From: Bdellovibrionales bacterium
GTDB taxonomy: Bacteria > Bdellovibrionota > Bdellovibrionia > Bdellovibrionales > UBA1609
Direction of reading: 5' to 3'
NCBI GenBank assembly: GCA_965261545.1
Contig: CBDHDF010000010.1
Location: 960,001-1,024,000, forward strand
Length of the DNA: 64,000 nt
Shown here: positions 39,930 through 61,678 of the stretch, in pieces
Position numbering within the stretch: the stretch's first letter is position 1
How the letters are laid out: each line of letters starts with the position of its first letter
Program-made: the position numbers and the translations under genes
The notes under the pieces: generated by a model
Databases searched by the model: none
The model's input: only the letters and a program-made list of their open reading frames with translations
What the model was told of the DNA's origin: nothing

Positions 39930-40202
39930 ATGATTGCAAATATAATCACTAAAAGTATTTCTAGTAGAAACATCAAAAACACTTCCAAATACCTATGTGC
40001 ACTATGCTTGCTTATTACAACGCCATCAGTCCATGCCATTTCTAGTGGCAATAGTTCCGCTGCCAGTGCTGCCAGTTCTGCAGCCAGCGTTGCATCTTTT
40101 AACCAAGCTCTCATAGCCTCCAAACTCAGTGTGACGGCAGCAAGTCTTGCTAGTCAAGCTGCTGTAGAAGCATCTGTGCAAGCCATTGAAGCAACTTTAG
40201 AG
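39930..40202 (+). pseudogene. 5' half of an Ala-rich exported hypothetical gene split by the 21-kb insertion
   Basis: AGGAGG RBS; joins in frame to 61322-61678 after removing one TSD copy (...EATLE|LGRKVV...), about 209 aa in total. Confidence 0.85.
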
Positions 40203-41773
40203 GTAACTATTCAGGGGGTGGGCGAATTCGAGTCATAAATGAGGGAAGTTTTCCTTGAAATAGCATATTTAGAGCATCTTTAGGTTCTATGCCATTTTTC
40301 TGGCAAGTCAGGAGAAAGCTTCGGTTTCTACAAAATGTCTTGGCTCCCATCAACGAACGAAAGCACCCAGATATTTTCTGCTGAACTTTGGTCATTCTCA
40401 GATCATTTTCTGCTATATTATTCGTAAATGGAACTATGGGGTCCTTCATAAAGAGCAAGGTATCATCTTCAAAGTTTCTCAGTCGATCTAGTAAATTTCT
40501 AGATTTGGATTGTTTAACCTTTCCCTTCTTTTTTTTCTCTGTCCTCTCCATTAATGGAGATTCCTTTTCCCCTTCGAAGAGAATATTTCGATATTTCTCT
40601 TTGTAATATTCAATTCGGTCTTGTGAAAGGCATTGGTTCTGCGTATCGTGCACCTCTTTGTTTATTGTCTCTAAAAGAGACTTCATTTCTTTTGCCCATT
40701 TTTGATCATCTTGCTCCCAAGCTCTTTGAAGCTCCCTTAAATGGTGCGCATTGCAAAGGGCATGAATGCAGGAAGTATATGTATAATAAGGTTTCCAATG
40801 GTCATGACAAACAATCCCTGTGTATTTTGGAAGAATTCCCATGCGATCCATAGCCTCTGCGCCTCTTTTTTCGTCCACCTGATAGAGAACCACAGTATCA
40901 TTGGACAAGAGGTGAAACCACAGCCTCTTCCCATTAACATTCACTCCAGTTTCGTCAGCATGAATCAAAGGTGAGTTCAGAAGAGTTTCCTTTGCCCACT
41001 CCTCAAAAGCTTCCAGAGCCTCAAAGGCAGATTTGTTAAAATTGTGTACCGTAGATCCAGCAAGCGATAGACCCCATTGATTAAAGTAACTTGCGACTCG
41101 AAGATGAGGGATTAACTGAAACTGGGACATATAAACTGAGTGAGCTTTCACAGAAGGGCCATATTGAGTTGGGTTATTGATTCCTTCTGGAAAACCTGCA
41201 ACCCACTGATTCCCATCTTGGTCTTCGAGGATTTCTCCTTGATACTCCGTGACATGCACAGAAAGGTCTACCTCAAATACTTGACGCTTTTCAACTCCAG
41301 AAGAAATGTAATCACCTGGAGGAAGTTCCTCTTTATTAATAGAAATGAACTCCACCTTGTCTGGAGTATCCACGGGTTTTAAAGTAGCTCCTTCGTGTCC
41401 GGGTTGTCCTCCTGGCTTCTTACCAGTTTCTTCCTTAGGTTTCTTTTTAGGGCCATTCGGATCTTGAGAAGGGGCAATACTACTGTTTTGACTATTTAAT
41501 TTTTTTTGATTTACTAGAATAGTGATGATTTTGATCAACAACTCAATGGCCACAATAAAAGCGGGAGAAAGGGACTTCTCTTTCTTAAGAAGCTTCCCAT
41601 AGGTGTTCGTGGTTTTTTTCTAATTTTAATTCCGAATTAATGGAAATACTTTTCAAGCCTCCTTTTTTACATAGAGGGAAGTGGGCGATTTATAAATATT
41701 TATAGATGGTATTTTGAGAAATGGACGCAGATTGACATTTGATATCCACGACAAGCCATGTGTTTTAAGAGAC

Positions 41774-42237
41774 TTAATTGTGTAACGAAAGAACTGTGGA
41801 CTTTTGGGAACAACAGAATTTAAATTTCTTTCCACTTCCGCATGGACAGGATTGATTTCTTTCAATTTTTTCGCTTTGGTCATTTTTCTGCTGTGATGCC
41901 GACATATCTTCAGTTACAATTTTTTTTTCTTTTCATCTTCCAAATCCTCATCCAAATTATCAAAAAGAATATCTCCTAGATTCTGGTGAAAGTAACGATT
42001 TTTAAATTGAGATATGAGCATCATAAAAATACATGTAAGAACCAAAAGTGTGAGTGAAGCAAAAAACAAATAAGATGCTTGCATCTGAGTTAATGGGAGG
42101 ATGAGTGCCAGTAAATAACCAAATCCAAATACCAATAAGGAAATAAAAAGAGATATAAAGGATCCCAAAGAAAGTAATATTAAAAGTCCAAAAATCATTG
42201 CTATTTTTTGCTCCTGTCGAATACAATGAATCCGCAT
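41774..42237 (-). pseudogene. Passenger membrane protein with C-terminal SEC-C motif, frameshifted at an A9 tract
   Basis: 107-aa TM ORF; the -1 frame from 41920 reads IVTEDMSASQQKNDQSEKIERNQSCPCGSGKKFKFCC...stop at 41774. Confidence 0.8.
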
Positions 42238-42342
42238 AGATACAAGTGAGTTATCTACAGACTTAATGATTCTCGCGTTAGTATCTTAATAGGTCAAGAT
42301 TAATTGGAGGAAATTTTTATTTTTTAAACGCAGGGGGCAAAT

Positions 42343-43587
42343 ATGAGCACGGAAGCTCAAACACTTAAAACGATCAAAAAATGTTTCAAGAAAGTTATTC
42401 CTGAAAAGGACTCTCGGGCAACCATTCCACCTCTTGAGTTTATTGTGGCTCTTGTCTTGTCATTCCAGGGAGACTCTAAGACATATTCAATAGAGGGGAT
42501 TAGGAGGTTTATGATAAGTCATTTAGGGTTAAGAATTGAAAGACACAGCTTCTGGGAAAGACTCTCTAGAAAAAGATTAAAAAAGCTTCTGAGTAAACTG
42601 GTTGAAATGCTCATGATAAAGCTATCTCATGGAGCTTTTCATGGAAGCAAAGCCATATTATTACAACTGGGAGTCTCAGACGTTCTTCTTGTTGACTCAA
42701 GCACAATAAGCCTTTGGGATGGAGCATCTGAGAATTTTCCAGGGACAAGAACAAACGCAGGAATTAAATGGCACGCTTGTTTCAGTTTATTCAGTGGTAT
42801 AATGACTTGGTTCGAATTAACTCCGTCTTCCACTAACGATAGGAAGTGCTTTCCTGATATAAAGGAACTCGTTGGAAAATTAGTCATCTTTGATTTGGGA
42901 TATTGGGACTATGGCTTATTGTCATCTATTCATGAAGCTAAAGGATTTTTCTTGTCTAGAGTGAAGTCAAATGCCTCTATTCTTATTGATGCTGTTGTTG
43001 AAGGTTTGCCAGATTACTATGTTGGAAAAGAGTTCTCTGATATTAAACTCAAGAAAAAAAACGATGTTGTTGAATTTATAGGCAGTGTCTTGTCCAATGG
43101 TAAATGGGTAAGTTTGAGAATTGTAGGCTTCTGGAATTCCTCCGAAAAACGCTATCATTGGTATTGCACGAATTTAGATGTGGCAGCGGAGTCCATATAT
43201 CCAATTTATCGTTTACGTTGGCAATGTGAACTTATTTTCAAATCTTGTAAGAATTCTTTGAATGCAAATCAGATCACCTCAAACGATCAAAATATCATAG
43301 AGAGTCTTCTTCTTGCTTCATTAGCGGCTCACCTCACATCAAGTGTTGTTTTGAGGATAGGAAGAACTAAACTCAATAAGGAACAAAATGACTCCACATC
43401 GTTTCAAAGAGTTGCTAAGGTTACCGTCTTATTAGCCTCTGATTTTATCAAATATCTCCTAAGCTCATCTCAAAAGTATTTAAATATTTTGATAGAGAAG
43501 ATCAAGATATTCTCCCATGAAATTTATGACACAAACTACCGACGGCGAAAAACATCAATGAATATGGCTAAAAAGGTCTTGCTATGA
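42343..43587 (+). CDS. IS4-family transposase (414 aa)
   Basis: VDSST, FDLGY, YRLRWQCELIFK (YREK motif). Confidence 0.93.
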   Translation: MSTEAQTLKTIKKCFKKVIPEKDSRATIPPLEFIVALVLSFQGDSKTYSIEGIRRFMISHLGLRIERHSFWERLSRKRLKKLLSKLVEMLMIKLSHGAFHGSKAILLQLGVSDVLLVDSSTISLWDGASENFPGTRTNAGIKWHACFSLFSGIMTWFELTPSSTNDRKCFPDIKELVGKLVIFDLGYWDYGLLSSIHEAKGFFLSRVKSNASILIDAVVEGLPDYYVGKEFSDIKLKKKNDVVEFIGSVLSNGKWVSLRIVGFWNSSEKRYHWYCTNLDVAAESIYPIYRLRWQCELIFKSCKNSLNANQITSNDQNIIESLLLASLAAHLTSSVVLRIGRTKLNKEQNDSTSFQRVAKVTVLLASDFIKYLLSSSQKYLNILIEKIKIFSHEIYDTNYRRRKTSMNMAKKVLL

Positions 43588-45874
43588 AAGAATAAAAAAC
43601 CACGAACACCTATGAGAAGCTTCCTGATTTTATTTATGGCTGAAGACACGTCAATATTTTCTATTTTCATACTTACCTTATGAAAATATTAACATGCCTT
43701 TTTTTCATTAAAAAAAATGCACTAGGATTCGTTCTAAGAAGCAAAAGGAATGAGAAGTGCCCCCCGCGACCTATGTTTCACAATCTTTCAATACTATGGC
43801 TCTCAGAGAGTTTAAGGCATATGCAGGAACATATTCGATAAAGAACAAATGAAAGAGGTCGTTTGCTTCAAAAACTTGTCAAGAATTTTTATACTTTTTT
43901 TAAAAAAATTGTTCGAATTAATGCGGCACCCCCTGAATAGTTACTATGAATCTCCGGGGTAGTTTGGACGCACGAATCCACTATCCGTTCTTCGAATTTT
44001 TTCAAATGTCCGAGTTTTTAAATCATCCTACATTACATGAAATCATACTTTTTTAACGCTCTAATCCACCTTGGTGCATTTTTTTTCACCATGAGCTTTT
44101 CATAGTCAATTCCAGGGTCTTTGTAGGGGGTGTCATTACTTATGACTGAATAAACAACTCCCATCATTTTGTGACCAACGGCAATCACTGATCTCTTGTG
44201 CCCACGCCTTATAACAAGTGATTGGTATTTGCCTTTGAATTGTGAATTCGTCTTAATAGCACTATTGGCCATCTCACATACCAACGATTTCACATATGTG
44301 TTCGCTTTCCTCGTTCGTGAAGACTTTTTTTTCCTGCGCTCTCATTATTGGATGGGCAAATCCCCATCCAGGAGCAAAAATTTCCTTTATTTTTAAAAGA
44401 CTTCACATTGCCTCCTATTTCTGCAATCAAAAGCGCTGCACTTAATTCGTCAATTCCAGGTATAGTCTGGAGTAGATGCCACTGCCTTTCATAGGGTTTC
44501 ATACGAATGAAAAGTTCTTCTTCAATTTGAGAGCATTCTTTTTTCAAAAAATCTATTCGATCAAGAATGCGTTGAAGAACAAAACGATTTTCTTCCGTCA
44601 TCTTTCCCGACAGGGCGTAAGAAAATTCTTCGGTCTTTTGACGTAAAGACCCTCTGGCAAGAGACATCAATTTAGAAACTGATCTCTCTCCATTAGCTAG
44701 TTTCTGTCCAGAAAGGCCCATTTTTTGTTCTCTGACACTCCCCATTGAGCCTCCCAATGCCTCAATGGGGGAGTGAGAGTTGGAGATTTGCCACACAAAC
44801 TCTACAGATTAAGGGGAAAAAGGTCTTTAAGCGACTTGCGCCCTAGTTTTTTCGATTTGAAGACGCACCCCTACCTTTGGAAGATTTTAGCACCTTCGAC
44901 CTGGTCCATTGCTGTTATTCCTAATGGATAAATTTAGGTGACAGTTGATAATTCATGTCTTGCCAAGACAACAAAATTATAGGCACAAACGGCATTCTTT
45001 ACATACCTCTTAAAACCATCATGCCCTTTCCAGTAAGCAACTCTCATACCAAAACATCTCTTAAGGAATGAAATAACAGCCTCTATTCCGGCTCTCCAAT
45101 TGAGAAGATTTTTAAAGACCCAAGCACTTTTAACCATCTTTAATATTTTCATTCCTTTTTTTTCTGGGAAGCAAACATCTTTAGCCCCCATCTCTTTGGC
45201 CTCTTCAAGATTTTCTTTTGAAGCAAACCCACCATCTGCACTTACTTTTACAGGGCAAGCCCCATAGGTTTGTGTCACTGAATTCATAACTTTTAAAAAC
45301 ATATCAGAGTCTGCGGGGTTGCCATCAGGGATCTGACAATCTAAAATCATGTTGCTTTGCCCTGAGGTCAAAAAGATTTTATGCCCAAACTCGACTTCTC
45401 TTTGCCCCTTTACAATAATGTCTGTATGCGGTTCAAAGATGGATAGGACCTTTTTTTCAGAAGATACTTTTTTCCCCTCAATAACTCTTTTTTGAGTTTG
45501 AAAGATGATTTTTTCCAGGTAGAAGGCAACATTTTCTAACTGTTTTAGACTCTTTTTCAAAGCATTCATCTTCACACATTTTTGTTCTTTTTTTATCTTT
45601 CTGATGGTATCAGGTAATCCTTTGTTCAATTTGGTAGCGATTTTTAAAAGCTCCTTATAGCAAGGTAGTCTTTCCGCATCATTTTTGGAATTATTAATTT
45701 TGTAAAGCAAGGTTTTTGCTCTCTTAAGATCTTCTCTTGAAATAAGTCGCCAAAAATCTTTCATGACATTTTTACGAACTTTTTTAAATTCTCTTTCTGT
45801 AACTCTTATGCAGTCATATAAAAGCGATGCATCCGTTGGATGATGAATATTTGATCACTCATGTTGATACCCCC

Positions 45875-47920
45875 TTAGTAACGTAGCTTTTTAATTGATC
45901 CGGACTTAAGTTTTTTAAAGTCAGATATGGTTTTTTTCTTATCTGGAAAGAGATAAGCCTTTGTTTTCTCGTGTTTTTTGACAATGATCCTCCCTTGTTT
46001 AATATGGTGATAAATCCAATGAACTTTAACATCAATAAGTGCTGCAATTTGAGATGTTGTGAGGCTTCCCTCGACTTTGGTCGGAAAAGAGTGCTTTCGA
46101 TTCCGATAGATTTTATTGTTTAGTCTATAGGACTTCACAGTATTTCTGAGAAAAGTGGTATCCATTGGTGATCTGAATCCTTTTTGGGTCAATAGTTTGG
46201 CAATATCTTCATCAGACACCCCAAGCTTGACCTGATGCGCAATTATTTTCTTTATCGTTTCAGAAGATGACAGTTCATCAAAAGATCCAACTTTGATTGG
46301 AATGCTAGCTTCTGTTGTATCTCCTCCAATCCAAACAATTCTCAGTGCAACCATATCTCTTTTCTTTCTGTGAATGACAACCTTTTCAACCAATGTTCTA
46401 AGAATTTTCTTTTTCATGTCTTTGGTCAATATCTTATCCTCCCATAGCGAAGGTAGTTTTTGATTCAAATCTGAAAATTCTCTTTTCATTTTTTGAGAGA
46501 TCACAGTTGGAATACGCTGTTCATTCTTAACCCTCTCTAGGTGATCTTCGGCTTTTTTAAGTATTACTAAAGCCTCTTCCCATTGTGTTTCTAATTCATC
46601 TGCAACAAGTCTATTCTCAGGGTCTACTTTGCGATACCTCTTTTCTACCAGTTGAGCTTCATACCTTAAACGCTGAATTTGCTGAATGTGTGATTTGTAA
46701 ACCTCTTGGTCAATTTTTGACTTATTTTCTAAAGCCTTGGCATACAAGTCTAGCTCGACAGGGGAAAGAACCTTAAAAAAAGCGTTTACTACATAATCAT
46801 CGATTGGATCTGTAGGAATGAATTGGCAAGTAGGTTCCCGATGTTGTTGGCGTAGATAGTTGCATAAGTATCGAGTTGCTGTTTTATACTGCACTGACAT
46901 TTTGTGGCCACATTCTCCACAATAGACTATCCCATGTAAGAGGGCCTTACCAGGGCGAGGTATGCCTCTTGTTTTATTACGAGTATATTCAGTGTAGTTG
47001 TCTTTTAGAATTTCTTGTATCTTTAAGAATGTATTCCAATCGATATATTTAGGATATTTATCTTTCACAACAATTTTCCATTCATTAAGTGGAAGCTTTG
47101 TACGCTTAAGTTTTCCAGCTAAGTCTTTTCTACGGTATTCAGCTTTGCCATATACAAAAGTTCCGCTATAAGCTGGATTCTTCAAAATAGAAAGTATGGC
47201 TGCCTTGGATGTTTTTTTCCAATGAATACTTTTTACAAAATCAACTCTTGGAAGTAAGAGGTTGTTATCGTTAAAAAATCGCGACACCTTACCGGCTGAT
47301 TTCAGTTTTAAGAATATAGTAAATACTAAATTTATGCGATCTTGTAAATCTTTATTTGGATCTTTTAGCACTTTACCTTGTTCTGTTCGAATAAAACCAA
47401 CTGGTAATTTAAGAGCTAAATCTCCTCGCTTGGCTTTGTTGAGAAGACCTGCTGTTAATCTATTGCGTATCGTAAATAATTCCATTTCTGAGAGTTGACC
47501 TTTAAACCCGAGTAACATTCTTCCATTAACATTAGAAGGGTTATAAATAGACTCTCTATCAGCAATGAGGCAATTCTTAAAAGCACACAGATCAAGTAAT
47601 TGGTACCAGTCCGTACAGTTTCTAGATAGACGAGTGACATCGTACGATAGAATAATACCAATTTTTTCCAAGGTCACTTCTGCAAGGATATTCTTGAAGC
47701 CTTCTCTAAACTGTATACTACTTCCTGTGATCCCCAAATCATCATCGACAATTTCAATACTATCTTCTTGCCAACCTAATTCAGTAGCTCTTTGCCTGAG
47801 TGAGTATTGAAGGTCGAGACTTTCTTTGTTTTTGATGGCTTGCTGAGGGGTCGACTGTCTGATGTATATTATGGCTTTTCTCTTTAAGTGAATAGGTGTA
47901 ATCAATTCCGATGTTTTCAT
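45875..47920 (-). CDS. Large serine recombinase (resolvase + recombinase + Zn ribbon + C-terminal HTH-like)
   Basis: YIRQST, DVTRLSRN, ILKNPAYSG, LLHGIVYCGECG; ATG at 47920 follows GAGGAG. Confidence 0.93.
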   Translation of the reverse strand: MKTSELITPIHLKRKAIIYIRQSTPQQAIKNKESLDLQYSLRQRATELGWQEDSIEIVDDDLGITGSSIQFREGFKNILAEVTLEKIGIILSYDVTRLSRNCTDWYQLLDLCAFKNCLIADRESIYNPSNVNGRMLLGFKGQLSEMELFTIRNRLTAGLLNKAKRGDLALKLPVGFIRTEQGKVLKDPNKDLQDRINLVFTIFLKLKSAGKVSRFFNDNNLLLPRVDFVKSIHWKKTSKAAILSILKNPAYSGTFVYGKAEYRRKDLAGKLKRTKLPLNEWKIVVKDKYPKYIDWNTFLKIQEILKDNYTEYTRNKTRGIPRPGKALLHGIVYCGECGHKMSVQYKTATRYLCNYLRQQHREPTCQFIPTDPIDDYVVNAFFKVLSPVELDLYAKALENKSKIDQEVYKSHIQQIQRLRYEAQLVEKRYRKVDPENRLVADELETQWEEALVILKKAEDHLERVKNEQRIPTVISQKMKREFSDLNQKLPSLWEDKILTKDMKKKILRTLVEKVVIHRKKRDMVALRIVWIGGDTTEASIPIKVGSFDELSSSETIKKIIAHQVKLGVSDEDIAKLLTQKGFRSPMDTTFLRNTVKSYRLNNKIYRNRKHSFPTKVEGSLTTSQIAALIDVKVHWIYHHIKQGRIIVKKHEKTKAYLFPDKKKTISDFKKLKSGSIKKLRY

Positions 47921-48017
47921 ATATAATCTCCTCAATGGCTAAAGTTAAGTCTTTGATGACTTGCTTTTGAATTTCTTTTGGCAGTCTTGGCCAGACATCT
48001 TTTGGTGTAATTGACAT
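47781..48017 (-). CDS. Small accessory ORF overlapping the LSR1 start
   Basis: 78 aa; overlaps both the upstream ORF and the LSR start. Confidence 0.5.
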   Translation of the reverse strand: MSITPKDVWPRLPKEIQKQVIKDLTLAIEEIIYENIGIDYTYSLKEKSHNIHQTVDPSASHQKQRKSRPSILTQAKSY

Positions 48018-48307
48018 AGTTGCTCTTCCAGTTGTTGAGTCAGTGAAATTAGCTCCTGAATTGCAACTATACCAAGTTTGCTTGGGGCCTGCCTATCGTA
48101 GAGATTGGGGTTCAGATTGGTAGAAGCCAATGGTATGCGTAGCGTCATGTGGTTCTTGTATTGAACAAAAGCAAAAGTAGATTTTTTCTGATTTTTAGGT
48201 ATGGAAATCACCTTGAATGACTTCCTATAAAGGGGATGGGAGGGGTCCGTGACCCTTAGCTCTCTAAAACCTCTGTCGTTGACGGGGGTATTAAGTAATG
48301 GACTCGT
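47945..48307 (-). CDS. Body of a junction-split accessory gene (VTDPxHPLY motif, DUF5372-like)
   Basis: Frame is open to the element end with no ATG/GTG/TTG before the motif; in-frame ATG and RBS lie at the other end (45862). Confidence 0.7.
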   Translation of the reverse strand, partial: TSPLLNTPVNDRGFRELRVTDPSHPLYRKSFKVISIPKNQKKSTFAFVQYKNHMTLRIPLASTNLNPNLYDRQAPSKLGIVAIQELISLTQQLEEQLCQLHQKMSGQDCQKKFKSKSSKT

Positions 48308-50147
48308 TTGATTTCGTCACTGTACTGTCCAATCTCATTTTCTTACACGGCTCAATCTTTTGATCTCTTGCATCTGAAACTAAAGAGGCGCTAATAATTC
48401 CCCAAGTTTCTTCACTTATTTGAACAATCAAGTCCTGTAAGGTGGAGTGAGCGTAATTTTCTTCCAATTCAAGGCCCAGAAAAGCTCTGGTGGATACTGA
48501 ATCGACAAGATTAAAGGCTAACGCACGATAGGAAAGACCTCTTATGGATTTAAGAATAGCCACCTTGAGAACTTGCTCCGATGTCATACCAATATCACCA
48601 GAATCTTTCTTTTCTTTAACAAGGTCTTCATGAACCATATGGGCAAACTCTGGATGGCGATCAATGATGTTATTAATTTGCTGCAATTCTGTACTGAGTT
48701 GGTGGTTAGGATATTGGGAAAAGAGTCCCAACTGTGTCTTCTTCAAATGGCGCATAGTCCCCCCTTTGGTGAAAGTTTCTCTTTAATTTTTATATTAACA
48801 TACGTTTTTTTGAGGGAAAAAAGTGAGCAAGGATGTCTTTTAAGAAGAAAAAAATCAGAGAGGTTCTCGGAGAACATGGATAAGAATTCTACCTCATAGA
48901 GAGGTTCCCACGCCTCCTAAAACCTACATAAAAAATAAATGAAGAATAAAATATCAAAAATTATTTCTCTGAAAAAACACGTCAAGTATTTTTTGAAGTT
49001 GATGCGCAACGTAATGTTATTTCCCTGAAGGAGGTTTGAAATCACCACGGTGGAAACACAGGTTGATCCAACTCTTCCTCTCATATCAAGTAACCAGTTG
49101 ATAGCCACATAAGTCACTGAAAGGGAGGGGCTGTGAAAGGTTCGTCAAGAGAGGGGGGGGAACTTATTTTATTTTTCCGTTTTATGTAAGTAACTGAATT
49201 TACACGGATTATGTTTGATGGACTCCATTTTAAAGCATAAAATCTAAAGGGAAGGCATGTAAATACTTAAAACTACTTAACTTTCTTCCCTGGACAGGAA
49301 CTAGCTATGGCACGAATCATGGCCATACCAGATACGCAGTCAGCTTTAGACATTGCATAGGTTAAACGAATGCCTGAATATTCAAGAACCTTATACATAC
49401 GATTTTGTTCCGAAGATATTTGGCGGATCGTTTTTGTACGATAACGAGCCAAAAGTCTAATAGAACGAATCTCACGTGGAGGAATGAAGCTAGCTCTTAG
49501 AAGACCACAAGCACCAAGCTCTGCAATCCACTGGCTATCCAACACGTCAGTTTTTTTACCAGTAATATTTTTGACATGAAAGGCATTGATAACATCTACT
49601 TCATAACCTTTTTCTGTCAAATCATCGTATAAAGAATTCCAATAAATCCCTGTGCTCTCAAAAAGAACTCTCTCAACCTTATGTGGCTTCATCCAAGAGC
49701 GCATTCTAGGAAAATTTTTTGGAAAATTCTTGAACTCTTTTGTGAAAAACTTCTTCTTACCGTCTTCCACTTTGACAATCGTACACATCAACATATGTTG
49801 ATGAACATCTATTCCACAAACAGAACTATAAATAATATCCACATGACTCCTCCTTTCTGTTAGAAAAAAAGAAGGTGATAAAACTAGAGCCTTGGGATTT
49901 TGCCATAAATTCTAAAGCGAAAATAGGTCAACTTACTATGAATCTCCGGGGTAGTTTGGACGCACGAATCCACTATCCGTTCTTCGAATTTTTTCAAATG
50001 TCCGAGTTTTTAAATCATCCTACATTACATGAAATCATACTTTTTTAACGCTCTAATCCACCTTGGTGCATTTTTTTTCACCATGAGCTTTTCATAGTCA
50101 ATTCCAGGGTCTTTGTAGGGGGTGTCATTACTTATGACTGTAAAATT

Positions 50148-52058
50148 GGTTACGGTAGGAATGCGTGTTGCCACGCACCCCCCGCACAGATCCGGACGTG
50201 CTCGTTAAAGCATCCGGCTCCTACTTCAGGTGGTACCGCATAGCGAACCTATCTGTTGGCCACGGGTGGCGTATGGATATACGAGGCCAGAATAGACGAA
50301 TCATTCTATCCAACCTCTTCCACGAGAATCTCCGTCCACGCTGTGAGCGTCGTCGGATGGCTTTCATCCAAGCACTCCTGATTGCGCAAATAAATTTTCG
50401 TAGGTACACCGTACTTCCTGGAACCGCAAAATAATTGAGCCAGCCTTTGATGACCAAACCCAACCACTTTGCACATTCCGCTAGGTCCCTCGTGTAGACT
50501 CGTTTTCTCAGACTCAGCTTCAGGTGCTGTAAGGTCCGGCAGACTCTCTTGGATATGGGTTTACGCCCTATCCTAAAGCCTCCTTTCCTCGTGCGCACAC
50601 AAAAGTGAGTGAATCCTAAGAAATCAAAAGTCTCGGAGTGACCAAGACCTCGTCGGCGGCAATTTGCATTTGCAAATCGACCGAACTCTATGAGGCGAGT
50701 TTTCCCCGGATGTATTTCTAGAGAAAACTCCTTAAGCCTGCGCTTCAGATCATTGAGGAAGCGTTCAGCTTCCCCCTTGTATTGAAAGCCTACGACAAAG
50801 TCATCGGCGTAGCGAACAAATATCATGTCCCCTGTGGCATGGTCCTTGCGCCATTTCTGCATCCATAAATCCAACACATAATGTAAATATATGTTGGCGA
50901 AGATAGGGGAAATATTTGAACCTTGAACGGTCCCTCTCCCTGTGTCTTCTAAGACGCCTTGAGATAGCACTCCGCACTTGAGCCACTTTTCAAAGAGACG
51001 AATGAGTCTCTCATCTCCGATGAGGTGTTTTAGAAAGCGAATTAGAGTCTTTCTATCCACGCTATCGAAGTAGGATTTTATATCCGCATCCAATATGTAG
51101 CTGATCTTCCTACGCTCTATTCCGTAAGCCAGAGCATCCAACGCATTATGCGCTCCACGCCCTGGACGGAATCCGTAGCTATAACCGAGGAAATGTTCCT
51201 CGTAGATGGGAGAGAGGATGCTGTCTACAACGGCCTTCTGGACAATCTTGTCCTCCAAGGCCAGGACACCCAAGGGTCTTGTGCCCCCGTCTGACTTGGG
51301 TATTTCTACCCGCAAGACAGGTTGCCCTTTGTAAGCACCCGTGTGGACCCGACGATGTAAATCGAACAGGTTTTGCACGAGGTTCTCGCCATACTCCTTC
51401 CATGTTAAATGGTCCACTCCCGCACTGGCTCCCCTATTCAAATAGAGGTAAGCCAAGTGGAGGGCTTCCACAGATACATGGTGAAGCAAGCAAGTGAGCT
51501 TACCATCCTTTCTCTTTGCTGCTATACGGACTCGCTCCGTCGCCTGTGACACCTTTTCCCAACTCTGTGTTCGGCAGATGCTTTGACGGATTGAGTTCCC
51601 TTCAGTTCCACCCCTTCGCTCCAAGGACTCCGCTGGGCTTGTAGGCCCTTTGTTCGTCCTCTTCATCGCTACTATGAGTGGATCCGATTTCTTTATTTCG
51701 TTCATGGGTTACGGTTACCTCCTTTCCCATGTCGCCCGTCGCACATGACGGGGTTAAATAAAGACCTCCCGAGGTCCCGAGATAAGATTCATGTATGTGC
51801 CAGTTTCTACGACGCCGTGGAGTCACCCACCAACTCACCATAGCGCTGGTGGGTATGTTGCGTTCGGCTACCATGACAGCCTCCGCACTCCAGAGTTCGG
51901 CATTTTCGACGCTCAATTATTTGGCCCACACACACCCCTACCGATACATCGCTTCGGCCTCACGGCCGACAGCGCACGGCTTGGGGAGAGAAGTGGTCGG
52001 TTGACCTTCCTCTCGGGGGACTCTAACCCCCTATCTTATCTCAGTTCGCCCGGCGAAC
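50148..52058 (-). mobile_element. Group II intron, copy 1, intact (class E-like)
   Basis: 5' GTTCGCCGG; D5 GAGCCGGATGC...GTCCGGATC; D6 ending CCTACCGTAAC(C), 3' end +/-1 nt; EBS1 TATGGT in hairpin 51826-51853 pairs with 5' exon GCCATG. Confidence 0.9.
50221..51705 (-). CDS. ltrA: Group II intron RT/maturase, no endonuclease domain
   Basis: AGVD, IPKSDG.TRPLG, YGFRPGR, QGSNISP, RYADD, FDFLGFTH, GWLNYF. Confidence 0.95.
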   Translation of the reverse strand: MNEIKKSDPLIVAMKRTNKGPTSPAESLERRGGTEGNSIRQSICRTQSWEKVSQATERVRIAAKRKDGKLTCLLHHVSVEALHLAYLYLNRGASAGVDHLTWKEYGENLVQNLFDLHRRVHTGAYKGQPVLRVEIPKSDGGTRPLGVLALEDKIVQKAVVDSILSPIYEEHFLGYSYGFRPGRGAHNALDALAYGIERRKISYILDADIKSYFDSVDRKTLIRFLKHLIGDERLIRLFEKWLKCGVLSQGVLEDTGRGTVQGSNISPIFANIYLHYVLDLWMQKWRKDHATGDMIFVRYADDFVVGFQYKGEAERFLNDLKRRLKEFSLEIHPGKTRLIEFGRFANANCRRRGLGHSETFDFLGFTHFCVRTRKGGFRIGRKPISKRVCRTLQHLKLSLRKRVYTRDLAECAKWLGLVIKGWLNYFAVPGSTVYLRKFICAIRSAWMKAIRRRSQRGRRFSWKRLDRMIRLFWPRISIRHPWPTDRFAMRYHLK

Positions 52059-53275
52059 CATGGCATTGCCCGCACCAGTTGGTTACGGTAGGAATGCGTG
52101 TTGCCACGCACCCCCCGCACAGATCCGGACGTGCTCGTTAAAGCATCCGGCTCCTACTTCAGGTGGTACCGCATAGCGAACCTATCTGTTGGCCACGGGT
52201 GGCGTATGGATATACGAGGCCAGAATAGACGAATCATTCTATCCAACCTCTTCCACGAGAATCTCCGTCCACGCTGTGAGCGTCGTCGGATGGCTTTCAT
52301 CCAAGCACTCCTGATTGCGCAAATAAATTTTCGTAGGTACACCGTACTTCCTGGAACCGCAAAATAATTGAGCCAGCCTTTGATGACCAAACCCAACCAC
52401 TTTGCACATTCCGCTAGGTCCCTCGTGTAGACTCGTTTTCTCAGACTCAGCTTCAGGTGCTGTAAGGTCCGGCAGACTCTCTTGGATATGGGTTTACGCC
52501 CTATCCTAAAGCCTCCTTTCCTCGTGCGCACACAAAAGTGAGTGAATCCTAAGAAATCAAAAGTCTCGGAGTGACCAAGACCTCGTCGGCGGCAATTTGC
52601 ATTTGCAAATCGACCGAACTCTATGAGGCGAGTTTTCCCCGGATGTATTTCTAGAGAAAACTCCTTAAGCCTGCGCTTCAGATCATTGAGGAAGCGTTCA
52701 GCTTCCCCCTTGTATTGAAAGCCTACGACAAAGTCATCGGCGTAGCGAACAAATATCATGTCCCCTGTGGCATGGTCCTTGCGCCATTTCTGCATCCATA
52801 AATCCAACACATAATGTAAATATATGTTGGCGAAGATAGGGGAAATATTTGAACCTTGAACGGTCCCTCTCCCTGTGTCTTCTAAGACGCCTTGAGATAG
52901 CACTCCGCACTTGAGCCACTTTTCAAAGAGACGAATGAGTCTCTCATCTCCGATGAGGTGTTTTAGAAAGCGAATTAGAGTCTTTCTATCCACGCTATCG
53001 AAGTAGGATTTTATATCCGCATCCAATATGTAGCTGATCTTTCTACGCTCTATTCCGTAAGCCAGAGCATCCAACGCATTATGCGCTCCACGCCCTGGAC
53101 GGAATCCGTAGCTATAACCGAGGAAATGTTCCTCGTAGATGGGAGAGAGGATGCTGTCTACAACGGCCTTCTGGACAATCTTGTCCTCCAAGGCCAGGAC
53201 ACCCAAGGGTCTTGTGCCCCCGTCTGACTTGGGTATTTCTACCCGCAAGACAGGTTGCCCTTTGTAAGCACCCGT

Positions 53276-55213
53276 TACTCCTCGGACACAATAGACAACT
53301 TTTCCATTGAAATTTCCATAAATATATATAATCATTCACTTTATGCAAGTGGTCGTAAATATGCTCACTATCGTTGGCATCCACCTGAGGATTCTTCCCA
53401 TTTAGCTTCGAACCATAGTCAAAGGAATGATAATGGCCCACCAAACAAAACATCAAAATCCATGGACAGCTCAGCTAAAAAGTGTCTATCAAAGCGACCA
53501 AACCACACGGATTCAACAGACATACGAAGTTGTTGTTCCAAAAATAAAGAAACAATTAAAGCAGAAAGTAAAACAACAGAAAATAATGGAGGTTAAAAAT
53601 GGAAACATCAGTAGCTCTTTATTGTCGAGTGTCCTCAGATAAACAAGCTCAAGAGGGAACCATTGATTCACAGATTTCTAGTCTTCACGATTTCGCTAAG
53701 GAACACAATTTTTGTGTAGAGGAGGATCTTATATTTATGGATAATGGTGTGAGTGGCGCCACCCTTGTTCGTCCTGCTTTAGACTCTCTTCGCGACAAAG
53801 CTTTTTCTGGGGAGGTTACAAAGGTACTTGTGTTATGTCCAGACAGATTAGCTCGTAAATATGCCCATCAATTGATTCTAATTGAAGAATTTCAGAGGCT
53901 AGGTGTTGAAATTATTTTTTCTAATAGAGATATTACAAATTCACCCGAAGATCAGCTTTTGCTACAAATACAAGGAGTCATTTCAGAATATGAAAGAGAA
54001 AAAATTATGGAAAGAAGTCGAAGGGGTAAACTTCAAAAGGCTTCTAAGGGCTTTGTTAGCGTTTTATGTGGAGCCCCCTATGGTTATATATATATTCTGA
54101 AAACAGACTCCGCTGACGCACGATATGAAATCCATCCAGAAGAGTCTAAAGTTGTTAAAAATATTTTTCAAATGTATTGCCGAAACAAACTAAGTATTAG
54201 AGCAATTGCAAAGGAATTAAATATAAGGGGGGTGCCTACTAGAAGACAACAAGGTATTTGGGGGCGTTCAACTATCTTGTGTATGCTTAAAAATCCCGCT
54301 TATTATGGACAAGCTGCTTTTAGAAAGACTATCAAGGTAGAAAGGTTGCGTCCAACCAAGTTCGCAAGAGACAATAATTTTTATCCAAAAAAACATAAAT
54401 CAAGTTCTTCCAATCGAAATAAAAAGGATTGGATATATATTCCCGTTCCATCTATAATTTCTTCAAAAACTTTTCAAGATGCGTCCAGCCAATTGGAAGC
54501 TAACAAAAAACTTTCCTCTCGGAATAATAAAAAATATGAGTATTTGTTAAGTGGTCTTTTACGATGCAAAGAGTGTGGTTATTCGATCTATGGCAAACCT
54601 GCTTCTCACTCAAGGTATAAGCTTTGTTATTATCGCTGCATGGGACAAGATGGTTATAGGTGGCCAGCTAAAGGTAGAGTTTGCTCATCTCATCCCGTAA
54701 GAGTTGAAGTTTTAGATGACTTAGTTTGGGAACAAACAGTTAAATTACTTGAAAATCCTCAGACAGTTATAGATGAGTATACAAGTAGAATTCATGAGCA
54801 AAAAGGTGAACAACAATCATTGGAAAAATTAATTGTAAAAAAGGCTCAGGAGATTCGTCAAATAACACATGAAAAGGAACGTCTCTTGGATCTTTATCAA
54901 AATGGAACTCTAAATCTATCAGAAATAGAGTCACGATTAAAAAAAATAAGAGGAAAAATAAAGCAACTTGAAAATGAAAAGCAATCTTTAGAGTATGAGC
55001 AAAGGCAAGAAGGACAACAACTACAGCTTGTAGATCAACTCCAAGAATTCCAAAAAAAAGTGAGTGCCAATTTAAAGGTATTGAGTTTTGAGCAAAAAAA
55101 GGAGATTGTAAGGCTACTGGTGAAGGAGGTTGAGGTGAACATTAAGGCAAGTGAAATTGTAGTTCGACACGTTGTGCCAACCTCCAAAAGTTTGCCATTG
55201 TGTCCGGGGAGTA
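53276..55213 (+). mobile_element. Large serine recombinase mini-element 2 (1940-bp unit)
   Basis: GT core duplicated (53274-53275, 55214-55215); 28-bp imperfect terminal IRs TACTCC(T/C)CGGACACAAT...AACTTTT. Confidence 0.92.
53433..53642 (+). CDS. Small ORF overlapping the LSR2 start
   Basis: MAHQ...RIQQTYEVVVP...; position resembles accessory ORFs seen upstream of such LSRs. Confidence 0.45.
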   Translation: MAHQTKHQNPWTAQLKSVYQSDQTTRIQQTYEVVVPKIKKQLKQKVKQQKIMEVKNGNISSSLLSSVLR

Positions 55214-55233
55214 GTGTGGACCCGACGATGTAA
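53599..55233 (+). CDS. Large serine recombinase (544 aa; stop codon supplied by the target DNA)
   Basis: YCRVSS, RPALDSLRD, DRLARK, EYEREKI.ERSRRGK, LLSGLLRCKECG; GGAGG RBS. Confidence 0.94.
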   Translation: METSVALYCRVSSDKQAQEGTIDSQISSLHDFAKEHNFCVEEDLIFMDNGVSGATLVRPALDSLRDKAFSGEVTKVLVLCPDRLARKYAHQLILIEEFQRLGVEIIFSNRDITNSPEDQLLLQIQGVISEYEREKIMERSRRGKLQKASKGFVSVLCGAPYGYIYILKTDSADARYEIHPEESKVVKNIFQMYCRNKLSIRAIAKELNIRGVPTRRQQGIWGRSTILCMLKNPAYYGQAAFRKTIKVERLRPTKFARDNNFYPKKHKSSSSNRNKKDWIYIPVPSIISSKTFQDASSQLEANKKLSSRNNKKYEYLLSGLLRCKECGYSIYGKPASHSRYKLCYYRCMGQDGYRWPAKGRVCSSHPVRVEVLDDLVWEQTVKLLENPQTVIDEYTSRIHEQKGEQQSLEKLIVKKAQEIRQITHEKERLLDLYQNGTLNLSEIESRLKKIRGKIKQLENEKQSLEYEQRQEGQQLQLVDQLQEFQKKVSANLKVLSFEQKKEIVRLLVKEVEVNIKASEIVVRHVVPTSKSLPLCPGSSVDPTM

Positions 55234-57035
55234 ATCGAACAGGTTTTGCACGAGGTTCTCGCCATACTCCTTCCATGTTAAATGGTCCACTCCCGCACTG
55301 GCTCCCCTATTCAAATAGAGGTAAGCCAAGTGGAGGGCTTCCACAGATACATGGTGAAGCAAGCAAGTGAGCTTACCATCCTTTCTCTTTGCTGCTATAC
55401 GGACTCGCTCCGTCGCCTGTGACACCTTTTCCCAACTCTGTGTTCGGCAGATGCTTTGACGGATTGAGTTCCCTTCAGTTCCACCCCTTCGCTCCAAGGA
55501 CTCCGCTGGGCTTGTAGGCCCTTTGTTCGTCCTCTTCATCGCTACTATGAGTGGATCCGATTTCTTTATTTCGTTCATGGGTTACGGTTACCTCCTTTCC
55601 CATGTCGCCCGTCGCACATGACGGGGTTAAATAAAGACCTCCCGAGGTCCCGGGATAAGATTCATGTATGTGCCAGTTTCTACGACGCCGTGGAGTCACC
55701 CACCAACTCACCATAGCGCTGGTGGGTATGTTGCGTTCGGCTACCATGACAGCCTCCGCACTCCAGAGTTCGGCATTTTCGACGCTCAATTATTTGGCCC
55801 ACACACACCCCTACCGATACATCGCTTCGGCCTCACGGCCGACAGCGCACGGCTTGGGGAGAGAAGTGGTCGGTTGACCTTCCTCTCGGGGGACTCTAAC
55901 CCCCTATCTTATCTCAGTTCGCCCGGCGAACCATGGCATTGCCCGCACTGATTGGCATGACTGATTCCCCTTAGCATAGCGTCATTGATGTTCTATAAAG
56001 ACCTCCAATCTTTAACCAAGGAGGTCGAAATGAGAACAAAGATGGATCATGAGCGTTACACAAAAATAAAATCATTAATAAAGGCAAATATTCCCGACCG
56101 AGAAATCAGTCGCCGCATGAAATGCTGCACCAAGACTCTTAGAAAGATAAGACGTGGTCTTTTAACAGACCCCAAGGATTGGAAGACCCAAAGAGAAATT
56201 CCCCCTTGGTCTTACGGTATAGATTGGAAGATTATTGAGAAGGAGATTGAGGATAGGCATTGTTTAAGTGACGTTTGGGAGGAAAAATTTCTGAAGGTCA
56301 TTAGCTACCCCCAGTTTACGAGGGAGTTTCATAAGCAATTTCCAAAAGCTGGCAAAAGGATTATTACCTTGCGTGATTTTCAGCCAGGCCACCAAGTTGA
56401 GGTTGATTACGCAGGATTTCAGCCAGAGTGGATCGATGAAGACCTTAATATTCATAAGGCCCATATATTTTGCTCAAATCTATGTTTCTCTCAGCGTATT
56501 TTTGCTTATGGCTCTTTGAGCGAATCTAGTGAAGATTTTCTTCACGCTCACGTTCTGATGTTTGAATATTACGGTGGGGTTCCGAGAGTGGTTGTTCCTG
56601 ATAATTTAAAGACTGGAGTGAACACACCCCATTTGTATGATCCAGAGTTGAATAAATCCTACCAAGAGCTTTTGGAACACTATGACACGGTGGCTGTTCC
56701 CGCTCGAGTTCGTCGTCCCCAGGATAAAAGCCTTACTGAGAATGCCGTGAAGCTCGTTACAAGGGCCCTCAGGTTTATGTACAGACGAGAGACCTTCACC
56801 AGTCTGGATCAAATTAATAAGGCTTTAAGGGAGGTGTGCGAGAAGATAAATGCTCGCCCTCACACAAGATTTAAGGTCTCTCGCAATGAAAAATTTCAAC
56901 GAGAGGTAAAAACTTTAAAACCCTTGCCTTCTTTTCCCTACCGGTGGGGACGTTGGGAGAAGAAAAAACTCCACCAAGACTGTCATGTGAGCGTTGAATC
57001 CAACTTCTACTCGGCTCCGTTTCAGCACCGAGGGG

Positions 57036-57087
57036 TGTTAGGCGCCAATTAAAATTGGCCATTTTTAGAAGCCGTCGCCAATGAAAA
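57036..57087 (+). mobile_element. About 50-bp terminal fragment of a second IS21-like element
   Basis: TGT start and repeated CGCCAAT(T/G)AAAA boxes. Confidence 0.55.
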
Positions 57088-58129
57088 ACGGCGTACATTA
57101 AACTTTTTTCTCATTTTATCAACAATATCTGAAAGCGTCTTGCCTTCAAAAGTATTACCAGGGAAAACCTCAAAACCTAAAGGGATGCCATCCCGATTCA
57201 CCAACAAACCAAAGACAACTTGGGTGCAGTCTGATCGTCTCTCTTTACTATAGCCAAATTGACGAAGTTTCCCTAAGTCTGTTCTTGTACTCTCGAAGCG
57301 TAAGGTTGTTAAATCATACAACACAATGTCTACTTGGAAATTAAATAAATCTCGCCCCACCCAATAAAGCGAGTTCTCTATTTCATCCTTATGGGAGGCA
57401 AGTAAGTCCATAGACCGATAAATATGCTGGAGACTCAAATCACCCTTAATCATGTCTGGGTAAAAAGATTTTTGCCAATACTCAAAAACCTTTAACTTGG
57501 AACTAGGAGCAATAAATCGGCTGGCAACTAAGGTAAAAATCACCTTACATAAATCAAATTGAACTTTCTCATGAGAATCTTTTATGTCTTTGAGGGTCTT
57601 ATTGATACCCAGTTGATCAAACAACTTTTGTAAAATCAGCAAGGGACCCAAAATGAAAGTCTCTTCGATGTAAAGCTCCTTAGCCAATTGACTCACAGTG
57701 AGAAGCTCTCGGTGGCGGGATACGGCCTGCGCCAAACTATTAATCTTATCCTCTCCTCCTTCCAGCGCGTCATGCGAGCCTTGCGCACTGATAAAACTGC
57801 GCCAAACTATTAATCTTATCCTCTCCTCCTTCTCCAGCCTTACCTAAGGACATGAGCATGCGTTTTTTGGATTTGCCTTTTTCTCTGTAGGACTCCACAA
57901 GGTGGTAGTAGCACTGACCTTTTGAGTTTTTAGTCGTTTGGATGTACATGAGGATATTTTCTACATATTTCTATGATATATCAATATTTAAAACGATAAA
58001 ATCCTATTTTGTTTTCTACACTTTTTTTACGTCAATTTTAATTTTTCCAGCAGCTACCATTATATTTCAGTACAACCCCAATTTCTGGAAATTTCGCATT
58101 TTAACGCAGATGCTGCTGTCAAACTCGGG
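57086..58129 (-). mobile_element. IS1634-B copy 2, truncated (equivalent to 2303-3276)
   Basis: Near-identical to copy 1, ends in the same IR; carries 70 extra bp at about 57727-57832. Confidence 0.9.
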
Positions 58130-58601
58130 ATTTACTTTCAAAAACAGCTCCTCGCTCGCCACAAGAGGACCAAAGGTAAACTCGGAGAGTACATCACCAA
58201 AAACGAACACCTCCCGGAGCCCAGTCGCGCCTACAAGGAGGCCACTCCCCAGAACATTCTTATTCAAGCAAGTATGATTTGTAAAGAGCTTGAAAACTTC
58301 ATTGAGGAGCTTTTTCAGGGTGGGACCATTGAAAATCTCAGAAGAGCTATGGGCTTTGTAAGCTCCTGTCACAAAGAAATCCAGAAAGAGGGCAAGGAAA
58401 AGTCCCTTCCTCTCATTATCAAAGCCCTTGAGGACTGCAAGCAGTGGGAGAAAAGGAGGGTTAGATATTTTCAGCAACAACTCCATTTCTATAAAGGGCA
58501 AAAAATAAAAAAGGTGAACGAGAAAATAGATCGTAAACAAGGCAACCCTTATTTGCGACATAACGAAAATCCAAATAACCAAAGCCCCAAGGAGGTGCCA
58601 G

Positions 58602-59354
58602 ATGGATGAAGTACAAATCAAAAACCACATGCATGAGTTGAAGCTCTATGGAATGTTAGACAGCCTTGAAGTGGCGCTGGATAACACAAGCCACAAGACT
58701 CAAGCATTGGATCTATTGAACGAGCTGTTATTTGCAGAAGTGGAGGCTCGGAAAATCCAATTCAGCCAAAGACTTCTCAAGACCTCAAAGCTGCCTCACA
58801 AGGTCAGAGGTGAGGCATTTGACCACCATGCCAAAAGGTCTATTAGTAAAAGAGAGGTGGATAGGCTTCAAACTTTATCATGGGTTAAGGAGCAAAGGTC
58901 TATCATTGTCGAAGGGCCAACGGGGGTGGGTAAAACCTTCTTGGCCCAGAGCCTGGGACACCAGTGTTGTCAATCCAGAATCTCCACACTGTTTATAGAC
59001 ATCAACATATTTCTAGAAACCTTGGCCCTGGAAAGGCACTCAGGAAGGTATTTGAACTACTTGCGTCGTCTGGGCCGCCCCCAAGTGTTAATTTTTGATG
59101 ACTTTGGATTAAGGAAGTTCTCCCAAAGTGAATCCACAGACTTCTGCGATATTTTAAAGTTTCGTTCCGATAGGTCCACCGTTATTACCACTCAACTGCC
59201 AATAACGCATTGGTCAGAAATTATTGATGATGAGGTGCTGGCAGATACTATCATCGACCGTTTGAAGCATACCGCCATAAAAATTTTACTTAAAGGAGAG
59301 AGTTATCGAAAAATCCAGGGAACAAAACTTGACCAGGACTTTTCCCTAAAATAG
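58602..59354 (+). CDS. istB: IS21 helper ATPase IstB
   Basis: GPTGVGKT, LIFDDFG, IDRLKH, GESYR. Confidence 0.95.
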   Translation: MDEVQIKNHMHELKLYGMLDSLEVALDNTSHKTQALDLLNELLFAEVEARKIQFSQRLLKTSKLPHKVRGEAFDHHAKRSISKREVDRLQTLSWVKEQRSIIVEGPTGVGKTFLAQSLGHQCCQSRISTLFIDINIFLETLALERHSGRYLNYLRRLGRPQVLIFDDFGLRKFSQSESTDFCDILKFRSDRSTVITTQLPITHWSEIIDDEVLADTIIDRLKHTAIKILLKGESYRKIQGTKLDQDFSLK

Positions 59355-60659
59355 GAAGAAATAGGATTACAAATTAACTAAAATTTTCCCCAGAAATGGG
59401 AAGGAAAATCATCAATGACGCATTGAAATAGGGAAAGTGAGGGTAATGGGTGCAACCAGTGCGGGCAATACGCGCAATTGTACACTTATGACTGAATAAA
59501 CAACTCCCATCATTTTGTGACCAACGGCAATCACTGATCTCTTGTGCCCACGCCTTATAACAAGTGATTGGTATTTGCCTTTGAATTGTGAATTCGTCTT
59601 AATAGCACTATTGGCCATCTCACATACCAACGATTTCACATATGTGTTCGCTTTCCTCGTTCGTGAAGACTTTTTTTTTCCTGCGCTCTCATTATTGGAT
59701 GGGCAAATCCCCATCCAGGAGCAAAAATTTCCTTTATTTTTAAAAGACTTCACATTGCCTCCTATTTCTGCAATCAAAAGCGCTGCACTTAATTCGTCAA
59801 TTCCAGGTATAGTCTGGAGTAGATGCCACTGCCTTTCATAGGGTTTCATACGAATGAAAAGTTCTTCTTCAATTTGAGAGCATTCTTTTTTCAAAAAATC
59901 TATTCGATCAAGAATGCGTTGAAGAACAAAACGATTTTCTTCCGTCATCTTTCCCGACAGGGCGTAAGAAAATTCTTCGGTCTTTTGACGTAAAGACCCT
60001 CTGGCAAGAGACATCAATTTAGAAACTGATCTCTCTCCATTAGCTATGGCACGAATCATGGCCATACCAGATACGCAGTCAGCTTTAGACATTGCATAGG
60101 TTAAACGAATGCCTGAATATTCAAGAACCTTATACATACGATTTTGTTCCGAAGATATTTGGCGGATCGTTTTTGTACGATAACGAGCCAAAAGTCTAAT
60201 AGAACGAATCTCACGTGGAGGAATGAAGCTAGCTCTTAGAAGACCACAAGCACCAAGCTCTGCAATCCACTGGCTATCCAACACGTCAGTTTTTTTACCA
60301 GTAATATTTTTGACATGAAAGGCATTGATAACATCTACTTCATAACCTTTTTCTGTCAAATCATCGTATAAAGAATTCCAATAAATCCCTGTGCTCTCAA
60401 AAAGAACTCTCTCAACCTTATGTGGCTTCATCCAAGAGCGCATTCTAGGAAAATTTTTTGGAAAATTCTTGAACTCTTTTGTGAAAAACTTCTTCTTACC
60501 GTCTTCCACTTTGACAATCGTACACATCAACATATGTTGATGAACATCTATTCCACAAACAGAACTATAAATAATATCCACATGACTCCTCCTTTCTGTT
60601 AGAAAAAAAGAAGGTGATAAAACTAGAGCCTTGGGATTTTGCCATAAATTCTAAAGCGA

Positions 60660-60785
60660 AAATAGGTCAACTTACTATACGTCCATACACTCAGAGTGCA
60701 GGTACATGCGTGGGTTCGATCCAAAGCTCAAGACCATGTTACTTCACGGAATTAAAATTACCAATCTATTCAACGGCCACTCATC
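60660..60785 (+). ncRNA. Putative IS110 bridge RNA (target and donor loops); strand inferred
   Basis: Lies in the non-coding end; ATGTTACT (60736-60743) equals the predicted circle junction AATGTTAC|TATGAATC, and downstream ATTCA complements the other arm. Confidence 0.4.
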
Positions 60786-61309
60786 TTATCACCTTCCAAT
60801 AATGTTATTGCTTTATCCTTTATTGTATCGGAATCATACATGACAAAAATACCATCAAAAGTCCAGAGTAACTAAAAGAGGCCAATTATATAGACCAGCG
60901 AAGCTGTCCACCGAGTTGCTTCGTGCAAAGAAGTGGGGGCCTAGAAAGATTCATGGGCGTGGGTGGGGAAGCAAGGCGCCCCCATGAATGTTACTATACG
61001 TCCATACACTCAGAGTGCAGGTACATGCGTGGGTTCGATCCAAAGCTCAAGACCATGTTACTTCACGGAATTAAAATTACCAATCTATTCAACGGCCACT
61101 CATCTTATCACCTTCCAATAATGTTATTGCTTTATCCTTTATTGTATCGGAATCATACATGACAAAAATACCATCAAAAGTCCAGAGTAACTAAAAGAGG
61201 CCAATTATATAGACCAGCGAAGCTGTCCACCGAGTTGCTTCGTGCAAAGAAGTGGGGGCCTAGAAAGATTCATGGGCGTGGGTGGGGAAGCAAGGCGCCC
61301 CCATGAATG
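60672..61309. repeat. 319-bp tandem duplication (non-coding ends of inner and outer IS110)
   Basis: 60672-60990 matches 60991-61309. Confidence 0.93.
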
Positions 61310-61321
61310 TTACCTTTAGAG

Positions 61322-61678
61322 CTAGGTCGCAAAGTTGTAATCACATCTACAAAGGTCGTTGGAGATGTCGTCGAAATAACTTTGGAAGCCTCTGCGGCCG
61401 GCCTTGAGTTTGTTGCAGAACTTGCCAGTGAAGTTATTACATTTACCATTCAAGTCTCTCGCGCCGCTTTAGAAGCTTCTTTAACTGCGGCAGGACACAC
61501 CTTAGATTTTATTGTGGCGAGTAGTGAAGTGGCACTTAAAGGTGTGGCCATTGTTGCTGGATCCACAGCTCAAGTGATTGGGCATACACTTGTCCTAGCT
61601 ACTTCACCTGCCGTCGCTGTGGGAATCGTACTCAACGATGTTGGATGCCAAATCTATGGAGCAAATCACTGCGAATAA
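61322..61678 (+). pseudogene. 3' half of the split Ala-rich host gene
   Basis: In-frame continuation after TSD CTTTAGAG. Confidence 0.85.

Follow-up and report, generated by a model that had tools for sequence, protein, structure and literature searches.

An IS110 copy nested inside another at the DNA of a predicted bridge-RNA donor guide in a Bdellovibrionales genome

How two copies of one insertion sequence come to lie one inside the other, and whether such an event can give a bridge RNA a new guide, are questions raised by a locus of a Bdellovibrionales bacterium (GCA_965261545.1; 4.3-Mb genome in 11 contigs). The window analyzed is a stretch of 64,000 nucleotides of contig C10 (CBDHDF010000010.1, positions 960,001 to 1,024,000), and coordinates are those of the window unless a contig is named. 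An initial annotation proposed that an IS110 element had inserted here into its own non-coding end, possibly rewriting a guide of its bridge RNA. The insertion is borne out by the junctions, and all guides that we could map are unchanged.

The recombinase of this IS110 element carries both expected Pfam domains above cut-off, PF01548 (DEDD N-terminal) and PF02371 (Transposase_20). An intact copy is 1709 bp long, with a 414-nt left end, a 400-codon gene and a 92-nt right end; the long left end, the short right end and the lack of a target duplication beyond the short core AA are traits of the IS110 group. In the window the motif TTACTA is found at 43941, 49933, 60672 and 60991, and TTAC followed by CT at 61310. 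Positions 60672-60994 are identical to 60991-61313 (323 nt, 100%), 43941-44148 is repeated at 49933-50140, and 49302-49939 is repeated at 60041-60678. Read on the minus strand, which is the coding strand, left-end positions 1-323 are followed by a complete inner copy and then by the left end from position 324 onward, the gene and the right end, as expected from a second copy inserting at an internal site. The outer copy (43941-61313, minus strand) is found in three pieces, namely 60991-61313 (left end 1-323), 49302-49939 (the remaining left end and the 5' half of the gene) and 43941-44699 (the 3' half of the gene and the 92-nt right end). The inner copy (49933-60994, minus strand), which entered the outer left end at position 323, is made up of 59484-60994 and 49933-50140. 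At the left hybrid junction (60991-60998, minus strand) the unchanged donor guide of the outer copy is followed by the inner left end, and at the right hybrid junction (49926-49940, minus strand) the inner right end and the core AA (49933-49934) are followed by the remainder of the outer left end. Both junctions are present, reciprocal and at one AA core. The internal site occurs in 37 copies in the genome, 36 of which continue normally, the window copy alone running into a new left end; likewise, among 36 downstream halves only that of the window has a right end preceding it. The repeats and the reciprocal junctions agree with the proposal that the order recombinase-recombinase-noncoding-noncoding results from a second IS110 copy inserted at an internal site of the first, and the nested structure is confirmed as real in the assembly. 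A reading of the 319-bp unit as a separate IS66-type miniature element was rejected, since every full IS110 copy starts with this unit.

Across the genome we counted 49 left-end starts, some of them from short derivatives, and 35 right ends. The 35 right junctions comprise 15 IS66 ends, 8 head-to-tail tandems, 3 target-like sites and 9 others, and 15 of the 33 exact IS66-type ends in the genome carry IS110. The left flanks show no conservation beyond GT. Where a right end runs into the interior of an element the join follows directly after AA in 6/6 cases, so the core was taken to be AA. The target thus reads GT-AA-CTATTCA and the donor TTCATAGT-AA-CATTCAT. The internal insertion site, CGTATAGT-AA-GTTGACC, resembles the right end of the element and not its target.

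To what part of the left end does this site belong? Relatives were collected with an alignment-based search (79 genome and 80 metagenome loci; a single-protein genome scan found none) and filtered for at least 39% identity, a match reaching the C-terminus and 260 nt of upstream DNA, which left 47 sequences including the query and 38 after removal of near-duplicates. Alignment of 31 of these 38 left ends (alignment A2; seven were omitted for truncation, poor fit or long insertions) gave a consensus with a target loop and a donor loop, in which 8 of 11 pairs show changes on both sides, a value reached in 0 of 500 shuffles and above all slid controls. A longer fold, built from 27 of the 38 sequences, has in addition an outer stem and a multi-branched donor loop, with 36 of 50 pairs changed on both sides; the window element pairs poorly at several donor-loop pairs of this longer consensus. 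The homologues are kin, so that shuffle tests overstate significance, and about ten different guide types are involved. We predict that the IS110 left end encodes a structured bridge RNA having both loops. The complete RNA of the inner copy would span 60608-60797 (minus strand), with the outer stem, target loop and multi-branched donor loop of the alignment and consensus folds and a z-score of -3.08 for the single-sequence fold. An Rfam search returned one weak, irrelevant match, and no match to a sigma-70 promoter or a terminator was found in the IS110 left end.

The predicted target guides read IS66 ends (15/35 right junctions) and lie 60-90 nt upstream of the insertion site. In the window element TGAATAGAT, which forms the 5' strand of the predicted target loop, agrees at 8 of 9 positions with the reverse complement of the core and right flank, an IS66 end. 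The long target guide TGAATAG(AT) (60764-60772, minus strand; repeated unchanged at 61083-61091 in the outer piece) is complementary to the IS66 end CTATTCA, a match to the right flank that is not visible in most relatives. The short target guide GAAGTAA (60739-60745), followed by the handshake bases CA (together 60737-60745, minus strand; 61056-61064 in the outer piece), agrees with the left flank in 21 of 27 elements, where 12.2 are expected. With a leftmost-AA rule, chosen after seeing the data, the agreement is 26/27, five rows with AAA runs having been off by one base. In 27/27 elements the left end begins with the same two bases that follow this guide (11.5 expected).

At the insertion site, 25 of 30 elements have the same four variable bases ahead of the core as at their own right end, against 4.3 expected and a maximum of 12 in 10,000 shuffles, whereas the target-loop guide, used as a control, agrees with the right end in 0/30; seven rows without the right-end motif in the available DNA and one misaligned row were left out. 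The site thus does lie in a predicted guide, as the initial annotation had suggested, though this covariation identifies it as the 3' guide of the putative donor loop and not as the left target guide, which is GAAGTAA. The donor guide TATAGTAA (60672-60679) and its handshake GT (60670-60671), together 60670-60679 on the minus strand, are intact in the inner copy, and the insertion went into the equivalent site of the outer copy. On the coding strand, the definitions of Durrant 2024 (PMC11208160; this and the other sources are cited for the parts of their text available to us) make the site the left donor guide; judged by its position in the loop, on the 3' strand and before the handshake bases, it is the counterpart of the right donor guide of IS621. 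Under both names it is a donor guide.

We propose, and consider quite likely, that the nest arose by a one-sided (half-match) off-target self-insertion at donor-guide DNA via a circular copy. A circular IS110 copy would have recombined at the AA core with the DNA encoding the donor guide of a resident copy. Guide DNA is a copy of one donor arm plus the core (TATAGT-AA, compared with CATAGT-AA at the true end), so it could be bound as a half-site; from the pairing rules, guide DNA would always be a perfect half-site for its own guide. The RNA being made and folded as predicted, the half-match route and the circular intermediate are the parts of this scheme that we infer. The internal site is the best donor-arm match among the 376 AA dinucleotides of the element, the true end excepted, and one of 11 internal GTAA sites; it matches the donor arm at five contiguous bases plus the core, the long target arm at 2 of 7 positions and the other donor arm at 1 of 7. 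The half-site might have been bound through a second donor loop (a donor-donor reaction); alternatively the short target guide could have served, for which GT-AA would suffice. In a normal insertion the handshake pairs number one before and three after strand exchange, the figures given for IS621 (PMC13626964), which supports our loop map. At the self-site they number two and two in a second donor loop, and none and four in the target loop. The donor route better explains the choice of site and the target route has the better handshake, and we keep both open.

Events of this class are known. In IS621 one matching arm plus the core suffices for insertion, and with programmed RNAs donor-only sites make up 47% of the non-target insertion reads (bioRxiv 10.64898/2026.08.31.748434). 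A survey lists 468 examples in which non-coding units stand in tandem next to an IS110 gene; the unit boundaries are enriched in one-sided donor matches, and target immunity is lacking (10.64898/2026.08.14.744561). Half-match mis-insertion is hence not new, and the added detail is that the half-site is the guide's own DNA.

The earlier idea that self-insertion rewrites the target guide, giving reprogrammed or functional tandem bridge RNAs, can draw on the position of the site inside a guide, on the change of the two adjoining handshake bases and on the presence of two target loops now 319 nt apart. However, each bridge-RNA guide ends in the core (Durrant 2024, PMC11208160), and since the last two bases of the guide are the crossover core, the guide stays whole on the upstream piece. 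Accordingly, both target guides and the donor guide are preserved in the outer piece without a single changed base. What this piece loses is the handshake GT, replaced by CA, together with the second hairpin and the closing and outer stems, and the downstream piece is left without a guide-bearing loop. The donor-like AATGTTACTA, which the initial annotation had noted at the start of the outer 319-bp copy, is the inner left end joined behind the unchanged guide. All mapped guides are identical in the outer and inner copies, which leaves no reprogrammed bridge RNA, and in place of tandem bridge RNAs there is an outer 319-nt piece that keeps the same target loop and loses the predicted closure of its donor loop. 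The fold predicted for the intact 190 nt (z -3.08) is lost from the same start in the outer copy (z 0.36). Position 323 was used for self-insertion once in 35 junctions and never in the relatives searched. We regard this idea as highly improbable; the locus is one intact predicted bridge-RNA gene, in the inner copy, and one fragment of identical specificity, with no new specificity.

Several observations weigh against a half-match self-insertion guided by the predicted RNA. The event is single, and 5/6 internal self-junctions are at non-guide sites, so the element is promiscuous and its strike on a guide could be partly luck. Covariation with the left end was sought at 11 offsets and yielded no second donor guide (best p 0.07), which leaves the donor loop map incomplete, and the minimum-energy fold of the single sequence fails to reproduce the target loop of the alignment. 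In the public contigs of one sample (four runs), possibly the source of the assembly, none of the pieces listed shows either junction. This result would suit an assembly artefact in a repeat-rich region, as would the existence of about 35 near-identical copies with homopolymer differences among them. In two of the four runs a single 1619-nt contig without branches carries the element across the site, yet this is as expected if 1 copy in 35 dropped, since contigs drop rare variants and the nested copy is 1 in 35. Moreover the two reciprocal junctions are 11 kb apart, core-exact and accompanied by different unique insertions in the two genes, which argues against a misjoin, and we think an artefact improbable. 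We also see little chance that the structure was built by two in-place duplications, one of left end 1-323 in tandem and a separate one of the rest, each begun at a donor half-match or at microhomology. The survey preprint does propose that donor-arm-started reactions often resolve in place and duplicate the intervening segment (10.64898/2026.08.14.744561), and the inner and outer copies have the same left-end alleles. These alleles, however, occur in other copies too, and the sole difference between the two copies, a run of A that is one base short in the outer recombinase gene, may be an assembly error, so that the haplotypes decide nothing, the source of the inner copy included. Two duplications would in addition need two events at the same base, whereas a single insertion yields both junctions.

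Gene spacing at 112 protein matches from 5 genomes, a measure that interrupted nests would escape, gave no second case of the same nest, nor did left-end DNA matches in 40 of 68, 40 of 54, 23/23 and 14/14 candidates scored. It was also absent from 150 homologue loci and, by profile, from 159 loci, 61 of which had a match. One split left end proved to be the insertion of another element and not a self-nest. In the literature covered, to which subscription papers mostly do not belong and where preprint supplements may list cases, there was no statement of an IS110 element inserting into its own guide-coding DNA and none of an IS110 bridge RNA aimed at IS66 ends.

The nest stands at the end of an IS66-family element (40203-43944; Pfam DDE_Tnp_IS66; terminal repeats starting with GTAAC; transposase at 40207-41553; another insertion sequence inside). 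The IS66 end at 43941-43944 is a normal IS110 target, at which the outer copy sits, and the 8-bp IS66 target duplication CTTTAGAG at 40195-40202 and 61314-61321 flanks the whole array. The outer recombinase gene is broken by a DDE insertion sequence (44694-49307, minus strand), of which 43 copies are present and which is itself split by a serine-recombinase element (about 45856-48306). The inner gene is broken at codon 366 by an IS21 element (50141-59483) with an 8-bp duplication, which contains group II intron pieces, a serine-recombinase element and another transposase fragment. With both recombinase genes disrupted by these later insertions, the locus is probably a dead end, a stack of mobile DNA. 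Two single-gene large serine recombinase elements (45875-47935, minus strand, and 53599-55233, plus strand) have 8 genomic copies each; one is hosted by the DDE element and the other by a group II intron. A host gene without a Pfam match seems to be split by the IS66 insertion into 39930-40202 and 61314-61678 (plus strand), with 21 kb of nested mobile elements between the parts.

The IS110 left end GTAACATTCATGGGGGCGCC (61294-61313, minus strand) resembles the displaced IS66 terminal repeat GTAACTATTCAGGGGGTGCC (40203-40222 and 43925-43944). By this likeness an IS110 insertion may restore, at the outer boundary, an end that IS66 can use, letting IS66 carry IS110. Such end mimicry is supported by two 51-bp hairpin elements (C2:618569-618619 and C6:99928-99978) that are near-identical to IS110 left end 1-46, have inverted ends and 8-bp target duplications, and were apparently moved by an IS66-type transposase.

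Other IS110 copies of the genome vary in several ways. At codons 300-303 of the gene the run of A is 7, 8 or 9 bases long in 18, 3 and 14 copies; the shifted frame also ends two relatives at 73-80% identity, and public contigs show the in-frame form. The variation is either assembly error or a slippage site. Arrays of at least three copies head to tail are found at C7:122500-128200, C7:263200-270000 and C11:725850-729300, some IS110 arrays carrying 15-20-bp right-end duplications or deletions to internal AA sites. Non-autonomous derivatives of about 105 bp, with IS110-like left and right ends and without gene or bridge RNA, are present at C2:233617 (minus strand), C2:289232 (minus strand), C3:20869, C6:3548, C10:576455 and C11:725855, where they occupy IS66-like ends or stand in tandem with full IS110 copies. 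Positions 83-147 of the left end (60848-60912, minus strand) are 65 nt that recur in the end of another multi-copy element, at about 50 further places. The stretch is seemingly missing in relatives, and the left end may have grown by its capture.

The element shares with IS621 (Durrant 2024, PMC11208160; PMC13626964) a DEDD recombinase, a long left end with a two-loop RNA, a dinucleotide core in every guide, target arms of 7 and 2 nt and the handshake gain from one to three. Unlike IS621 it has a 400-aa protein, the core AA, an IS66-end target, a guide order reversed relative to the gene (the right-flank-complementary guide is 5') and a multi-branched donor loop in which only one covarying guide was found. 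Its order of target matches is of the IS1111 type (Siddiquee 2024, PMC11187229), yet its non-coding region lies upstream, the arrangement of the IS110 group, and with ISEc21 of the seekRNA work (same source) it shares a target inside another insertion sequence. In the clade of the window element (60608-60797 and relatives) an upstream bridge RNA, an IS1111-like guide order, a multi-branched donor loop and one covarying donor guide occur together, and donor recognition may be naturally one-sided. The half-match recombination of IS621 (10.64898/2026.08.31.748434) likewise is insertion where one donor arm and the core match and the target does not, but the present case is natural and its half-site is the element's own guide-coding DNA, which the available text does not mention. 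Expanded IS110 loci (10.64898/2026.08.14.744561) share repeated insertion into occupied loci and tandem non-coding units; in the parts seen, their boundaries are not linked to guide-coding sequence. CazIS110-1 (bioRxiv 10.1101/2025.10.25.684509) also has tandem by-product copies, and there a target-loop-only RNA can act; that short RNA is a processed product, whereas the target-loop-only gene fragment described here was made by insertion. ISPpu9, with a non-coding module mobilized in trans, is the nearest parallel to the short derivatives of this genome.

What the nest may mean for other IS110 elements can be said with less assurance. We hold it doubtful that bridge-RNA elements in general carry perfect self half-sites in their guide DNA and that strikes on the donor guide yield a target-loop module, the source of some tandem units. 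Self-insertion at the donor guide would sever a non-coding module whose target loop is intact and whose donor handshake has changed from GT to CA. Such a module might be transcribed and work in trans, as a natural RNA that has only the target loop or is biased to excision, and some of the tandem non-coding units of expanded IS110 loci might stem from modules of this kind. Self-insertion may be kept rare by handshake bases that are paired at the self-site even before strand exchange. The nest leaves the origin of new guide targets unanswered, as a crossover at the core cannot alter bases 5' of it. It does offer predicted guides for a seemingly active IS110 element aimed at IS66 ends, and it would be a clear natural example of half-match mis-insertion. 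For the design of bridge editing, a cassette encoding a bridge RNA would be a half-site itself and should be checked as an off-target. If true, guide DNA acting as a perfect half-site would be a built-in self-targeting hazard of every bridge-RNA element.

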